11,818 nt of DNA from Promethearchaeota archaeon (GTDB lineage Archaea; Asgardarchaeota; Lokiarchaeia; Sigyniarchaeales; SOKP01), in the NCBI GenBank assembly GCA_016926735.1, contig JAFGOA010000074.1, forward strand, positions 1-11,818. Reading direction: 5' to 3'. A model generated the notes under the pieces. The model saw only the letters and a program-made list of their open reading frames with translations. It did no database searches and was not told the origin of the DNA. Below, piece after piece: positions 3,350 to 8,880 of the stretch. Numbering within the stretch: position 1 is the first letter of the stretch; each line of letters starts with the position of its first letter. Made by a program: the position numbers and the translations under genes.

Positions 3350-3390
3350 AAAAAAATACAGGGCATTTTTTAAAAATGCCCTGTATTTTT
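3350..3390 (-). terminator. Intrinsic terminator after flgE (potentially bidirectional)
   Basis: Perfect 19-bp inverted repeat AAAAATACAGGGCATTTTT (3352-3370) / AAAAATGCCCTGTATTTTT (3372-3390), starting 15 nt after the flgE stop. It gives a 7-U tract on the minus strand and a 5-U tract on the plus strand. Confidence 0.85.
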
Positions 3391-3405: not shown

Positions 3406-4836
3406 TTATCGTTTTAATGTTAATAATTCTTGAAGCATCTGATCTGTTGTTTGAATTGTTTTTGAGTTTGCCTGAAAACCTCTTTGAGTTACAATCATAT
3501 CAGTAAACTGTTCTGCAAGATCAACATTACTCATTTCTAAAGCGCCAGCCATGATTTTACCTTTCCCCATACTCCCAGCTGTACCAATATCCGGCTCTCC
3601 AGAATTATTTGAAAACACAAAATTTGTCTCTCCAGCTTTTTCTAAACCTTCCGGATTTATAAATGTTGCTATAGCAACCTGAGCTAATATTCTATTATTC
3701 CCATTAGAATATACTCCTGTAATAGTTCCAGTATTATCTACTTTTAAACCTTCTAAATACCCTAAACCAAATCCATCCTGTCTAAATGGCTTTGTCGTAA
3801 ACTGAGAACTAAATTGCGTTACCCCAACATTATCTTCTGTTTTAACTCTTCCAGACTCACCTAAATTTACTTGTATATTCATTGGCGCTGCACCTGTACC
3901 AGGATCTTCTATTCTAAGATTAACAAATAGGTTATTCTGATTTTTAACATCACCATTTTCATCAGTTACAGAAATTATTCTGCCAAGATTGTCAAAATTG
4001 ATTATGAAATCTTTTTGTCCAGCAATAGGAGCATGATCTTCTACTCCTGTAGGCACAACATTAGTACTTAGCTGATTGTCATCAATTCTTATTTTTTCTT
4101 CAGGATTATCAGGATTATATCTAAATGCTTCTACTCTTACATTCCATTGATTAGTACCGGTTTTATAAAAAGTAAATCTTGTTTCTATTGGCGCACCAAG
4201 AGAATCATATGAATCAATTGATGATGTCCATGTGTTTCTTATTAAATCTTGTTCAGTAGCTGCGTCAAGATCTGGAATAATCGGCATTTCTGACATTAAA
4301 TTACATTTAAAATCTATATTTGCAGTAGCTTGAGCAGGATCTTTTGAATACAAAGGAATAATTATATCATCAGGAGTATCTGCGCTTCTTATTATATATT
4401 GCCCGGCTACTAATTGTGAAGTCCAGCCCTGTACTTTTAATCCTGTTGCTGGATTTACTAATAATCCGTCTTTATCAAGACCAAATGCACCTGCTCTGGT
4501 GTAAAAAATTTTCTCTCCATCTTTTATTACAAAAAAACCATTCCCGCTTATTGCCATGTCAGTATTTACACCTGTGGTCTGTAATGAACCTTGAGTATGA
4601 AGTGTATCAATTGAAGCTACCACCATACCAAGACCTATCTGTTTTGGATTAACTCCTCCTTTTTCTTCTGTAGGCCGAGCCGCCCCGCTTAATGTTTGAG
4701 ACAACATATCTTGAAATGTTGCTCTACCTTTTTTAAATCCATGAGTGTTAACATTTGAAACATTATTACCAATTACATCCATTCTAATCTGATGGTTTTG
4801 CAAACCACTTACCGCAGAATATAATGACCTCATCAT
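3406..4836 (-). CDS. flgE: Flagellar hook protein FlgE
   Basis: N-terminal MMRSLYSAVSGL...GNNVSNVNTHGFKK, internal YTRAGAF, and C-terminal GALEMSNVDLAEQFTDMIVTQRGFQANSK. SD AAGGAG. Follows flgD. Confidence 0.98.
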   Translation of the reverse strand: MMRSLYSAVSGLQNHQIRMDVIGNNVSNVNTHGFKKGRATFQDMLSQTLSGAARPTEEKGGVNPKQIGLGMVVASIDTLHTQGSLQTTGVNTDMAISGNGFFVIKDGEKIFYTRAGAFGLDKDGLLVNPATGLKVQGWTSQLVAGQYIIRSADTPDDIIIPLYSKDPAQATANIDFKCNLMSEMPIIPDLDAATEQDLIRNTWTSSIDSYDSLGAPIETRFTFYKTGTNQWNVRVEAFRYNPDNPEEKIRIDDNQLSTNVVPTGVEDHAPIAGQKDFIINFDNLGRIISVTDENGDVKNQNNLFVNLRIEDPGTGAAPMNIQVNLGESGRVKTEDNVGVTQFSSQFTTKPFRQDGFGLGYLEGLKVDNTGTITGVYSNGNNRILAQVAIATFINPEGLEKAGETNFVFSNNSGEPDIGTAGSMGKGKIMAGALEMSNVDLAEQFTDMIVTQRGFQANSKTIQTTDQMLQELLTLKR

Positions 4837-4879: not shown

Positions 4880-5359
4880 TTAATTACCAACTTTAACTAT
4901 ATTACTAGCAGGATAATTCTCTCCATTTACTTTAACAAAAATTTCTTCACCTTGTCTTGATACAGCTTCTACTGTACCGCTTATAAACAATGGATTGCCT
5001 TCACTATCAAAATTACCCTGACTATCTATATCAACATTTAAACCAAGCATATTAAAGCTTGATTGAAAAGATACTCTTTCTAATAATTTTTCCATGTTAC
5101 TGTTAAAATTCATCATTTGCTCTAAAGATGAAAATTGAGCCATTTGAGCAATAAATTCTCTGTCTTCCATTGGATTAGTTGGATCCTGATGCTGAAGTTC
5201 TGTAATAAGCAATTTTAAAAATTGATCTTTGCCCAAATCTTTTACCGGCTCTTTTCCATCGACCTTTAATTTTTTGTTAATTTGGTCAACTTCATATTTT
5301 GTTTTAAACATCTCTGCGCTATTTTGATTTACATTTAATAAAGTATTAATTGCATCCAT
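4880..5359 (-). CDS. flgD: Flagellar hook capping protein FlgD
   Basis: Signature LGKDQFLKLLITELQHQDPTNPMEDREFIAQMAQFSSLEQM. SD GGAGG. Confidence 0.97.
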   Translation of the reverse strand: MDAINTLLNVNQNSAEMFKTKYEVDQINKKLKVDGKEPVKDLGKDQFLKLLITELQHQDPTNPMEDREFIAQMAQFSSLEQMMNFNSNMEKLLERVSFQSSFNMLGLNVDIDSQGNFDSEGNPLFISGTVEAVSRQGEEIFVKVNGENYPASNIVKVGN

Positions 5360-5377: not shown

Positions 5378-6829
5378 CTAAATTAAAATATTTATATTTG
5401 AATTATCTCTTTTTGAATAATTGATTATTTCTAAAGAATTATTTTCCTCAAAAGTTTCAATATTTTTAGAAATAATATTATTTTTATACGATAAATTATT
5501 ATCTTCATTAACAAAATTATTATTTTGTTGATTACCGGAAAATTCACCGAATCTATTTCCAGCTAAAATAATCTCAATATTTTCCAATTCTACATTTGAT
5601 TTCTGCATAACAGCTCGCAGCTCTTCAACATTTGACTTAAAAAAATCTACTACTTCTTGATTTTGCAGTATAAGTTTGCCATTAACTTTCCCATCTTTAA
5701 CAACAAACTGAAAGTCAATCCTTCCAAAATTTTCCGGACGTATCATTGTTGAAAATTTCGTCTGATTTTGAGTTAAAACAATTTTTGTATTATTTGATAC
5801 TTGCTGAAATATTTTTTGCTTATTCACTTCTAAAGTTTCTTTTGTGTTTAAAGGAACATCTTTATTTAATGCTATATTCGCGTTTTTATTATCATAAATT
5901 TCAAGTTTAATTTCAGACTTAATATCATTTAATTTGACATCTTCACTTTTTGCCTGATCTTTATTATTAATTTTTAACTTATCATTAACCTTTAAATTTG
6001 TTTTATTTTCAGCACTATCAGATGAAGAAAATTGATTAAAATTATTATTCTTTATTACATTTTTACTTTTTTCTAAATTAAGATCGTTACTTTTATCATT
6101 TTTATTTAAATCTTTAATTTCATTTTTATTCTGCTTATCTTTAATTTGAACTTTAATTTTTTTATCAATAGTTTTTAAACCATTTATATGTGAGGTTCTG
6201 ATTAGCTGAGATATAAAAGCATTTGCAATATTTGTATCAATTTTACCTGATTTTAAATCATTCATTATACTTTTAATCTTCTGCTTTGTTTTAAAATCTA
6301 AATCGCTTTTTAATTCAATATGCCCATATCTTAATTTTATATTTATGGACTCTAATGATTCTTTATTATCTATATTTTTATCTAACTTATTATTACTTCT
6401 TATTAATTTTGTGCTATTAATATTTTGATTTATTTGATCTTTATTTATATTTTTTACTGATTTATTATCTTCTCTTATTATTTTGTCACTATTTATATTT
6501 TCAACATTAAAATTTTTCTTGTCTTCTGAAATTTTATTTATCTCTTTTTGTTCTTTATCGAAATTTTCCTTTTCTAAATAATTATCAATATTATCTGTTT
6601 CATTTAATGTTTTTTCAAAATTATTTTGATTATCTTCAAAAGTAATAATTATTGTATTATTATCTATTGTATTATTATCATTATTCTTTCTTAAATAATC
6701 TGTATTATTTTCTGTAAATAAATCTTCAAAAGACGCACCCAAATTATCATTATAGTTTTCTTTATTCTGCTTTTTTAATAAACTTGATGCTTCGTGTAAA
6801 ATATTACTTTTCATTACCTGTTCTATCAT
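5378..6829 (-). CDS. fliK: Flagellar hook-length control protein FliK (about 483 aa from the ATG at 6829)
   Basis: Long low-complexity Asn/Lys-rich N-terminal region followed by a C-terminal FliK/T3S4-like domain (IRPENFGRIDFQFVVKDGKVNGKLILQN...NVEELRAVMQKSNVELENIEI). Lies directly upstream of flgD. Start reassigned from the TTG at 6922 to the ATG at 6829 because AAGGAG lies 6 nt upstream of the latter. Confidence 0.88.
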   Translation of the reverse strand: MIEQVMKSNILHEASSLLKKQNKENYNDNLGASFEDLFTENNTDYLRKNNDNNTIDNNTIIITFEDNQNNFEKTLNETDNIDNYLEKENFDKEQKEINKISEDKKNFNVENINSDKIIREDNKSVKNINKDQINQNINSTKLIRSNNKLDKNIDNKESLESINIKLRYGHIELKSDLDFKTKQKIKSIMNDLKSGKIDTNIANAFISQLIRTSHINGLKTIDKKIKVQIKDKQNKNEIKDLNKNDKSNDLNLEKSKNVIKNNNFNQFSSSDSAENKTNLKVNDKLKINNKDQAKSEDVKLNDIKSEIKLEIYDNKNANIALNKDVPLNTKETLEVNKQKIFQQVSNNTKIVLTQNQTKFSTMIRPENFGRIDFQFVVKDGKVNGKLILQNQEVVDFFKSNVEELRAVMQKSNVELENIEIILAGNRFGEFSGNQQNNNFVNEDNNLSYKNNIISKNIETFEENNSLEIINYSKRDNSNINILI

Positions 6830-6860
6830 AACAGGCTCCTTATTTTTTTTAATAAAATCC

Positions 6861-6917
6861 AAAAAAAAGAGCTGATTCAATACATATATCTTTAAAATAT
6901 ATGTACTGAACAGCCCT
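6861..6917 (-). terminator. Terminator-like hairpin in the fliK leader
   Basis: Minus-strand RNA: AGGGCUGUUCAGUACAUAUAU (6917-6897), loop UUUAAAG, AUAUAUGUAUUGAAUCAGCUCU (6889-6868). This forms 21 bp with two G-U pairs and one bulged U and runs into an 8-U tract (6868-6861). Confidence 0.7.
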
Positions 6918-6937
6918 CCCAAGTTGTTCTAATTTAA

Positions 6938-6964
6938 TTTTCGGATAAATTTAAAAGTGCTAAA
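6938..6964 (-). promoter_or_regulatory. Putative sigma28 (FliA/SigD)-type promoter for the fliK cluster
   Basis: Minus strand reads TTTA (6964-6961), N15, TCCGAAAA (6945-6938) against consensus TAAA-N15-GCCGATAA. The -10 box matches 6/8 including the CCGA core, but the -35 is weak. Treponema fla operons beginning at fliK/tap1 are known to use a sigma28-type promoter. Confidence 0.5.
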
Positions 6965-7071
6965 GAGATAAAATAATAAATTTATTAATTTTTTATTTTT
7001 TATAATAATATAGATTTTTTTATTCTATTTAGTATAATTTCAATAATGCTCTTTAAATCAAGGTATAATAA

Positions 7072-8880
7072 TTGAATAAAATAAAAAATAATAAAAATTA
7101 TACTTATAGTGAATTTTTATCCTTTAAAAAAGAAAGAAAAAAAATTTTCAATATTATTTTTTCTTTTGCTGGTGTGATCTTATATTTACTATATGCAATG
7201 CTGCATATTTTTTATTATGAAAAAAACTATTTGATGACTATATTTCTTGTCAGTACAAGCTTTTTATTTACTCTAAATCTTATTTATTTATTTTTCAAGG
7301 GGAATCCGGATTTATCAGCAAACTATGCTCTCCTGGTTTCAATCTTGATCATTTTCCTTACAACAATCTTTGGAGCTGACACAGATTTTAGATTAGTCTG
7401 GTTTTTGATAATTCCATTATTATCCTATTATTTAAAAGCAAAAATAAAAGGAACAGTATTTATTATTATTGGATTACTATTATTTTTTTTAAGTCTTATT
7501 TTAAATCAAATAGGATTAATTAAATTTACAATTAAAATTAATGCTTACATAGACGTCTTAACTTTATATGTTTTTATCTCATTAGCAACTTTTTATTATG
7601 AGTTTATTAATAATGAAAATGAAGAACATATATTGTCTCAGTTATATACTGATTCATTAACAAAATTTTTTAATAGAACAAGCTTAGTGCAGGATATTAA
7701 AAATAATATCGCTAATAAACTGATATTAATCAATGTTGACAATTTTAAGCATATTAATGATCTATATGGCAATGCATTAGGCGATTTAGTATTAGTGGAA
7801 ATATGTAAAAGACTCAAACAATTTAAAACAAATAATTATATTCACAATATTTATAAACTTCATGCGGATGAGTTTGCACTATTATTTTACAATAGAATTA
7901 ATAGACCTGAATTAAACAAATTAGTAAATAAATTAGAAAACGTTCTTAATCAAGAATATTATATTGAAAATATTGAAATTTTAATAAGCATCACAATGGG
8001 TATTTCTGATTCAACCAGCAACATTTTAGAAGAAGCAGATATGGCTTTAAAACTAGCAAAAGAAAATCAGGTTAGATTTCTATTTTTTGAAAATTCCATG
8101 AAAATAAAAGAAAAATTTGAAAATAATATTATTTGGGTAAAAAAAATTAAAAAATCAATAGCGCATGACAATATTATACCTGTATTTCAACCAATTCTGA
8201 ATAACAAAAATAATAAAATAAAAAAATTTGAATGTTTAATTAGAATGATAGATGAAGATGAATTAATACTGCCTTTAAACTTTATAGAAGTTGCAAAAAA
8301 ATCAAAATTTTACACACACTTAACTAAAATAATATTATTAAAATCTGCCAAATATTTCGCTGATAAAAATTTTGATTTTAGCATCAATATAAGTTTATAT
8401 GATATTTACAGCAAAGAAAGCACTTTATTCTTTACATCAATTATTGATGATTATAAAATTGGGGAAAAACTTATCTTTGAACTTACAGAAACAGAACAAA
8501 TTGAAAATAATAGTCAGGTAAATTTTTTTATTGAAAAAGTTAAAGAAAGAGGATGCAAAATAGCAATTGATGATTTTGGCACTGGATATTCTAATTTTGA
8601 TTATTTGTTAAAAATGAATGTTGATATATTAAAACTCGACGGCAGTTTAATAAAAAACATCAATGAAAATAAAGATTCACATATTATCACAGAAACAATT
8701 GTAAATTTTACAAAAAAACTAAATATTGAAACAATAGCTGAACATGTTTATTCAAAAGAAATATTCGATATAGTTAAAAAATTGGGAATTGATAATTCAC
8801 AAGGATTTTACATTGGTAAGCCGGAAAAAGAAATAGATAATTTTTTTGTAAATGGAAAATTTGTTTTAAATATAAATTAG
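7072..8880 (+). CDS. Membrane-anchored GGDEF(degenerate)-EAL protein, probable c-di-GMP phosphodiesterase
   Basis: About 6 hydrophobic segments in the N-terminal ~180 aa. The GGDEF-like domain has TDSLT..NR, VDNFKHINDLYGNALGD and HADEF in place of GGDEF. The EAL domain has FQPI, ECLIR, INIS, FELTE, DDFGTGYS, KLDGS, IAEHV and QGF. TTG start with an AAGGT SD-like element. Confidence 0.92.
   Translation: MNKIKNNKNYTYSEFLSFKKERKKIFNIIFSFAGVILYLLYAMLHIFYYEKNYLMTIFLVSTSFLFTLNLIYLFFKGNPDLSANYALLVSILIIFLTTIFGADTDFRLVWFLIIPLLSYYLKAKIKGTVFIIIGLLLFFLSLILNQIGLIKFTIKINAYIDVLTLYVFISLATFYYEFINNENEEHILSQLYTDSLTKFFNRTSLVQDIKNNIANKLILINVDNFKHINDLYGNALGDLVLVEICKRLKQFKTNNYIHNIYKLHADEFALLFYNRINRPELNKLVNKLENVLNQEYYIENIEILISITMGISDSTSNILEEADMALKLAKENQVRFLFFENSMKIKEKFENNIIWVKKIKKSIAHDNIIPVFQPILNNKNNKIKKFECLIRMIDEDELILPLNFIEVAKKSKFYTHLTKIILLKSAKYFADKNFDFSINISLYDIYSKESTLFFTSIIDDYKIGEKLIFELTETEQIENNSQVNFFIEKVKERGCKIAIDDFGTGYSNFDYLLKMNVDILKLDGSLIKNINENKDSHIITETIVNFTKKLNIETIAEHVYSKEIFDIVKKLGIDNSQGFYIGKPEKEIDNFFVNGKFVLNIN

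Follow-up and report, generated by a model that had tools for sequence, protein, structure and literature searches.

A putative promoter-proximal terminator in the leader of a sigma-28-type flagellar hook operon on a spirochaete-like contig

The window analyzed here, 11,818 nt in length, is the whole of an 11.8-kb contig (C104) of the bin G000. Open reading frames (ORFs) and Pfam matches place fliK, flgD, flgE, flbD, motA, motB, fliL and fliM on its minus strand (Table 1), and the gene order from fliK to fliM is typical for spirochaetes. Ahead of fliK lie a promoter-like sequence, a hairpin and a U8 run. An earlier sequence-only reading of this DNA had placed these features and the fliK ATG at positions that all hold, with the hairpin counted here as 22 pairs. 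From the end of the U8 run (6861) to the ATG (6829) is a distance of 31 nt. In an alignment of FliK with six homologues, M1 is invariant and the protein starts at this ATG; an ORF opening at a TTG (6922) is simply an in-frame extension of fliK. Because the upstream neighbor of fliK is divergent, no minus-strand gene ends at the hairpin, and the earlier statement that this is not a gene-end terminator stands.

Table 1. Features of the fliK leader, the hook genes and their surroundings in the 11,818-nt window
Feature	Position	Strand	Remarks
-35-like element TTTAG	6960..6964	-	Sigma-28-type motif, conserved upstream of fliK in relatives
-10-like element CCGAAAAT	6937..6944	-	Invariant in six hairpin loci
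Predicted transcription start	6929..6930	-	Predicted 7-8 nt after the -10 element, in a conserved TTAGA/ATAGA motif
G-run GGGAGGG	6914..6920	-	Last 3 nt form the stem base
Core hairpin	6869..6916	-	22 pairs, 3 of them G-U; one bulged U; 3-nt loop
U8 run	6861..6868	-	0 nt after the stem
fliK Shine-Dalgarno AGGAG	6836..6840	-	AGGAG in 6/6 hairpin loci
fliK, hook-length control	5378..6829	-	First gene of the unit; Pfam Flg_hook, 34 bits
flgD, hook cap	4880..5359	-	Pfam FlgD, 1.5e-23
flgE, hook	3406..4836	-	Pfam Flg_bb_rod, FlgE_D2, Flg_bbr_C; 92% identical to L012
Second terminator-like hairpin + U7	3350..3385	-	Between flgE and flbD; 29 nt, ΔG -17.2 kcal/mol
Membrane GGDEF-EAL gene	7072-8880	+	Divergent upstream neighbor of fliK

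The bin is an Asgard (Loki-type) archaeal MAG, and the contig, judged by its sequence, is spirochaete DNA mis-binned in it. FlgE of the window is 92% identical to FlgE of an uncultured Spirochaetales MAG (L012), and neither FliK nor FlgD turned up in any of 40 relatives of G000. G000 itself yielded no flagellin and no match to the FliA/sigma-70-type model; two TBP repeats are present, and FliA is missing from G000 because the bin is archaeal. The G+C content of the contig (26.2%) is the same as that of the bin, which accounts for the mis-binning. The host of the contig is an uncultured low-GC spirochaete, and users of the assembly should regard the contig as foreign to the Asgard archaeon of its bin. 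Since G000 is archaeal, genome-context tests were repeated in the genomes of related loci, G041-G046 (L012 belongs to G041, L013 to G042, L015 to G043 and L174/L104 to G046; L127 is a metagenome locus).

The sigma-28 (FliA) consensus combines -35 TAAA with -10 (G)CCGATAA, about 15 nt apart. The window promoter reads TTTAG-N15-CCGAAAAT, its -10 element having one A for T relative to that consensus. Placement of the predicted start relies on the spacing rule for sigma-28 promoters and falls in a TTAGA motif (around 6932-6928) that is kept, as TTAGA or ATAGA, in the fliK, flgM-like and flaB promoters of relatives. The motif T[TA]AAG/TTTAG-N15-CCGA(A/T)A, with TAGA about 8 nt later, occurs directly upstream of fliK in about 18 distinct loci (the window; L012-L017; L104, L105, L107, L108 and L113-L116; and 8 of 17 metagenome loci). 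The same motif precedes flaB in L182-L184, and a short gene, with a leader of about 20 nt, in L146 (G041), L172 (G043) and L173 (G042). This short gene looks like one for the anti-sigma factor FlgM, a likeness seen in its translated sequence only. FliA scored above the curated cut-off in 5/5 of the closest related spirochaete genomes. The recurrence of the motif before fliK, the flgM-like gene and flaB in FliA-encoding relatives bears out the earlier description of the promoter as sigma-28-like. We infer that FliA uses this sigma-28-type promoter and that transcription starts near the predicted site. In Treponema denticola, PflaB2 is reported with mapped -35 TTAA and -10 CCGATAA elements (PMC9481697).

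Counted genome-wide in four spirochaete genomes, the bare motif was no more frequent than a reversed-pattern control, so the promoter assignment rests on position and conservation, and we used only orthologous, gene-proximal matches. Scans of G000 returned 180 matches with a loose pattern, mostly noise, and 29 with a tighter one. Among distant spirochaetes, a promoter-like match to the regular expression lay near fliK in 2/62 loci only, both GC-rich and doubtful, in a scan that set aside L052 and nine loci with too little upstream sequence. Six Treponema-type loci have another gene preceding fliK, and no promoter motif. A different placement was seen in L109-L112 (G055, G048, G053 and G051, respectively), where a sigma-28 match (TAAAG, about 14 nt, GCCGATAA) lies inside the fliK coding region, its DNA sequence being conserved among the four genomes, and may serve flgD-flgE as an internal promoter. 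The more distant L114-L116 (G089, G075 and G111) have the same type of promoter and a short leader after it, in which a 5-bp hairpin holds the fliK Shine-Dalgarno (SD) in its loop and 3' arm.

A 151-nt stretch holding the hairpin folds with a free energy of -43.7 kcal/mol; 200 dinucleotide shuffles gave -22.5 ± 3.5 kcal/mol (z = -6.0), and none of them matched the native fold. For the hairpin alone, with its 22 pairs, ΔG is -24.7 kcal/mol (z = -8 by mononucleotide shuffles). The outer stem pairs are G-C, G-U, G-C and C-G, and the first 4 nt of the G-run either stay unpaired or form G-U pairs with the U-run. The two strands of the window together hold 37 runs of at least seven Ts, only two of which adjoin a strong hairpin: this one (-24.5 kcal/mol) and the weaker one downstream of flgE (-17.2 kcal/mol). 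As the sequence-only reading had it, the hairpin is oriented with the flagellar transcript, the sense fold being stronger than the antisense (-24.7 versus -16.2 kcal/mol) and the other strand having no U-run. The element thus has the parts of an intrinsic terminator, namely a stable stem with a G/C-rich base and a U-run immediately 3' on the transcribed strand. A consensus terminator scanner missed it because of its bulge. It lies between the promoter, assigned through consensus and conservation only, and the first SD, with no conserved promoter-like motif after it, and this geometry points to a leader attenuator.

Known RNA families and repeats gave no other account of the hairpin. In an Rfam scan of the window, nothing matched at E <= 1 except mir-299, a hairpin artefact with 25 bits against a gathering score of 67; the leaders of five relatives had no match. 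In G000 the only full-length match to the hairpin was to itself. The element is likewise single-copy in G041 and G042, where the remaining matches are short AT-rich stretches, and hence it is not a mobile repeat. The possibility, raised from the letters, of a dispersed repeat or MITE is thereby removed.

The second terminator-like hairpin, after flgE, is likely the end of the fliK-flgD-flgE unit. A hairpin with a run of at least seven Ts lies downstream of flgE in 9/15 loci of the wider clade, often with a sigma-70-like promoter before flbD coming next. These data suggest that fliK-flgD-flgE is a transcription unit of its own. The clade evidently uses terminator signals of this kind, hairpins with at least seven Ts, at the ends of its transcription units. 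In the window, an extended -10-like sequence, TGTTATAAG, is found between the second hairpin and flbD.

In six loci the promoter and the fliK SD are separated by a hairpin with a U-run: the window, L012, L013, L015, L127 and L174/L104. These are the six closest by FlgE (76-92% identity), and in a maximum-likelihood tree of FlgE the hairpin loci form one group, with a single change (support 84/84; 0/500 label shuffles as low). The 20 rows of this tree took in every near-clade locus that has a full FlgE, together with five rows as outgroup, and did not include L018, which is partial, or the remaining distant loci. FliK is only 33-73% identical within this clade. Across the six, the G-run begins 16-18 nt from the -10 element, and the predicted unpaired 5' tail before the stem is 9-11 nt long and varies in sequence. 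The hairpins span 29-99 nt, with ΔG from -9 to -38 kcal/mol, the weakest being that of L174 (9 pairs, 3 of them G-U). The U-run, of 7-9 nt, follows the stem after 0-1 nt and lies 29-56 nt from the start codon (29-34 nt in 3/6). The antisense fold is the less stable one in all six loci.

Interiors of the six hairpins are unalignable. What is kept is the G-rich 5' base, the C/U-rich 3' base, the U-run and the promoter distance. The stem closes with three to five G-C/G-U pairs in every case; the G-run of the 5' arm (GGGRGGG) is nearly invariant, and the 3' arm toggles between C and U. A six-sequence MAFFT alignment put L174 one column out of register, so these outer pairs were listed for each sequence separately. 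The hairpin is absent from sister lineages that have the same promoter: about 12 further related loci have the promoter directly before fliK and leaders of 20-70 nt with no hairpin. The hairpin is therefore dispensable for hook synthesis. Two relatives with neither hairpin nor U-run, L105 (G052) and L134, have a G-run (about 10 nt) that closely resembles the 5' arm and lies just upstream of the fliK SD. This G-run may be an older element and the source of the stem base, and its occurrence in hairpin-less loci means that the motif may have another or older role.

Within the clade, substitutions in the stem preserve pairing. Between the window and L012, 6 of 25 pairs differ by one-sided changes (five U-A/U-G and one G-U/A-U) and none is broken. 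Between L013 and L015, 26 consensus pairs include two changed on both sides, and so compensatory, and two changed on one side, again with none broken. In the two comparisons together, 10/10 changes keep pairing, mostly as G-U, an outcome that is neutral only as RNA on the minus strand. By a rough estimate, the chance that a random substitution leaves a pair intact is between about a quarter and a third; six out of six paired changes between the window and L012 would thus be unlikely under neutrality. Covariation among fliK leaders, to which the earlier reading had looked for confirmation, is thus favorable in that every observed stem change pairs, and thin as a statistic in that only six sequences from about four lineages contribute.

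These patterns bear on two readings in which the hairpin has no role as RNA. It might be a neutral remnant without function, for instance of a palindrome inserted long ago between promoter and SD; in its favor, leaders of only 20-30 nt occur in relatives that have the same promoter, and the interior sequences and lengths vary widely. Yet all six clade members have retained the hairpin despite the divergence of their FliK proteins, the U-run and stem base are kept, all ten stem changes still pair, and the element is single-copy in G041 and G042, which together make a remnant very unlikely. The stems also contain near-perfect DNA palindromes, of 8 bp in the window and 14 bp in L013, as would suit a DNA-level operator at which a dimeric repressor forms a roadblock downstream of the promoter. 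We consider such an operator highly improbable, as the palindrome sequences are not common to the lineages, the substitutions give G-U pairs that break DNA symmetry while keeping RNA pairing, and the sense fold beats the antisense in 6/6 loci.

Two further readings grant the hairpin a role as RNA, and both had been listed as options in the sequence-only reading. In one, the hairpin is a 5' stabilizer or processing element that guards the hook mRNA from 5'-end-dependent decay, and the U-run is incidental. Its nearness to the predicted 5' end and its constant promoter distance (6/6) agree with a need for 5'-end proximity. A stabilizer needs no U-run, however, and a run of U7-9 has been kept after the stem in 6/6 loci despite the turnover of the interior. 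In addition, counting from the predicted start, the stem would be preceded by an unpaired stretch of 9-11 nt, which to our knowledge is too long for known 5'-terminal protectors. A stem followed by U8 would, moreover, terminate regardless. Because of the retained U-run and the roughly 10 nt predicted before the stem, we now hold this option to be unlikely.

In the other, selection acts on the short RNA, which would be a trans-acting small RNA (sRNA) that depends on sigma-28 and shares the fliK promoter, and attenuation is a side effect. A terminator hairpin with a U-tail is the usual 3' end of an sRNA, and the geometry here would yield such an RNA of about 70 nt. Escherichia coli MotR is described as being made in the same manner (PMC10578931), and for GraL, whose stems are conserved, a function of the RNA itself has been suggested (PMC2836576). 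Against this, the six loci share no conserved single-stranded stretch: loops and stem interiors differ completely between lineages, the 5' tail varies, and the conserved parts (G-run, C/U-rich 3' base and U-run) pair with one another. The RNA would also range in length from about 45 to about 125 nt. Since no single-stranded part is conserved, the evidence speaks against a trans-acting seed. The discrete RNA, of about 70 nt, that the earlier reading had put forward would arise as an automatic product of termination, and we doubt that it is what selection has maintained.

Several more specific candidates were tried and rejected. No Rfam aptamer supports a riboswitch of the c-di-GMP-I, c-di-GMP-II or another class, and with only about 10 nt 5' of the stem there is no room for one; both points agree with the earlier reading. 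That reading had also implied a c-di-GMP link through the GGDEF-EAL neighbor, an idea that finds no support, the neighbor being common to the window and L012 only. A leader-peptide attenuator was dismissed since no ORF of at least 20 aa is present besides the in-frame TTG extension of fliK; a leader-peptide start codon after the G-run is absent in L013 and L015. For a CsrA-regulated fliK leader, the G-run lies in the stem, and GGA is absent from the G-run in L127 and L174. An antiterminator formed by pairing of the 5' tail with the 5' arm would have 5 bp in the window and L012, where it was also called as a plus-strand 'terminator'; by inspection, L015 has a comparable 5 bp, and L013, L127 and L174 have at most 3 bp. 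With stem energies between -23 and -38 kcal/mol to overcome, this pairing is far too weak. Judged by inspection only, the fliK SD could pair over 7 bp with the 3' arm or U-run in the window, but not in L013. Lastly, L170 (G041:C196) combines a promoter-like match, about 100 nt of structured RNA, a U10 run and a CCCUCC complementary to the G-run, and was considered as a sigma-28 sRNA. Its 'promoter' overlaps the stop codon of a 424-aa ORF, and L170 is therefore an ordinary gene-end terminator.

Taken together, the layout is probably that of a promoter-proximal intrinsic terminator, acting as a leader attenuator, in the sigma-28-type fliK-flgD-flgE unit of an uncultured low-GC spirochaete. RNA polymerase would start at about 6930, make about 10 nt, transcribe the G-run and the 22-bp hairpin, and meet the U8 run. 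A fraction of polymerases would release an RNA of about 68-72 nt there. The remainder would read through fliK, flgD and flgE and stop at the second terminator. Since every transcript from the promoter passes the signal, the leader would set, and may modulate, hook-gene output. The gap between U-run and start codon is short across the six loci and holds no shared motif, so expression of fliK from this promoter would need readthrough. We infer from the same layout that termination is partial and may be either constitutive or modulated. Three metatranscriptomes of the same study yielded no reads on this region, and a look for RNA datasets covering 5400-7400 returned none; neither result weighs for or against termination.

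The simplest form of this reading is a leaky terminator, which would lower the output of a strong promoter class for the hook genes. About a hundred copies of the hook protein are needed per hook. Flagellin output from the same sigma factor would be handled by CsrA-type leaders. Of the options in the sequence-only reading, premature termination has held up best; a constitutive leaky terminator fits as well as one that would need the antitermination factor proposed there. A plain terminator leaves several features unaccounted for: the near-invariance of the 5' arm beside a 3' arm that toggles between C and U, the fixed promoter distance, and the first three to four G/A nucleotides of the G-run, which lie outside the core stem and can G-U pair with the first Us. 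The similar G-run ahead of the SD in the hairpin-less L105 and L134 is a further such feature.

A more novel reading is a regulated checkpoint. A trans factor (a protein, an RNA, or the 30S subunit acting via the SD-like sequence) would recognize the near-invariant GGGRGGG(G)CU at its fixed distance from the sigma-28 promoter and hold the 5' arm open, allowing readthrough into fliK-flgD-flgE. We offer this as a speculative extension with only a small chance of being right. If true, transcription of the hook genes would be tied to the state of assembly of the flagellum, and this in a lineage whose hook, anti-sigma and flagellin genes share one sigma factor.

The element also bears on flagellar control in this clade more widely. 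In the textbook hierarchy, hook genes are made before sigma-28 is active. In these spirochaetes the hook operon, the flgM-like gene and the flagellin genes all have sigma-28-type promoters, so the cell needs other means to set very different outputs. The flagellin leaders, apparently of CsrA type, and the leader terminator in the hook operon of one sub-clade point to post-initiation control as that means. The putative attenuator is compact (about 110 bp) and clearly oriented, which makes it amenable to in vitro testing.

An early flagellar operon whose transcripts can end prematurely in the leader is found in Clostridioides difficile, where the flgB leader, several hundred nt long, carries the c-di-GMP riboswitch Cd1 with its ligand-binding aptamer. 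The putative spirochaete terminator differs in being preceded by only about 10 nt, with no Rfam aptamer. The flagellin leader of Bacillus subtilis hag is bound by CsrA. Leaders of this class share with the fliK leader a 5' hairpin in a sigma-28 transcript and a GGA at the SD; in the fliK leader, by contrast, the G-run lies in the stem and has no GGA in 2/6 loci, and a U-run follows the hairpin. The flaB loci L182-L186 (G041/G042) have a sigma-28-type promoter, a small hairpin with GGA in its loop (AAGGAUG/ACGGAUG) and a GGA-containing SD, which by sequence is the arrangement known for CsrA control of flagellin. CsrA sites are mentioned for T. denticola flaB as well (PMC9481697).

A counterpart among spirochaetes is T. 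denticola P-tap1 (tap1 = fliK), reported as a strong sigma-28-like promoter (PMC12878829). As in the window, a sigma-28-like promoter directly upstream of tap1 drives a flagellar unit, there of hook and motor genes; the accounts of P-tap1 consulted here mention no leader terminator (PMC12878829, PMC6930189). Our literature search, whose scope did not extend to older Treponema papers, found no leader terminator described in a spirochaete hook operon.

The closest analogues, functional rather than homologous, appear to be two E. coli RNAs. GraL comes from the greA leader, where two-thirds of transcripts are reported to end at a leader terminator, giving RNAs of 40-60 nt; relatives conserve its stem, the lower part of which is important (PMC2836576). 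GraL and the fliK element both lack an aptamer and have their intrinsic terminator a few tens of nt downstream of the promoter. The two differ in gene, sigma factors and sequence, and the GraL stem is described as 11 bp with an interrupted U-run. MotR is produced from a sigma-28 promoter by termination before motA, with readthrough into motAB-cheAW (PMC10578931). In both MotR and the fliK leader, a sigma-28 promoter heads a flagellar operon and a terminator precedes the first gene, so that a short RNA is set against a readthrough mRNA. MotR, however, is reported to act in trans with Hfq on defined targets, whereas the spirochaete leader has no conserved single-stranded seed; the two are unrelated in sequence, and the MotR operon holds motor and chemotaxis genes rather than hook genes. 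The claim of an undescribed regulatory element thus holds for the sequence family, and the kind of element is already known from MotR and GraL. With the spirochaete leader, their principle of a promoter, an immediate terminator and a readthrough mRNA would reach hook genes and a phylum unrelated to that of E. coli.
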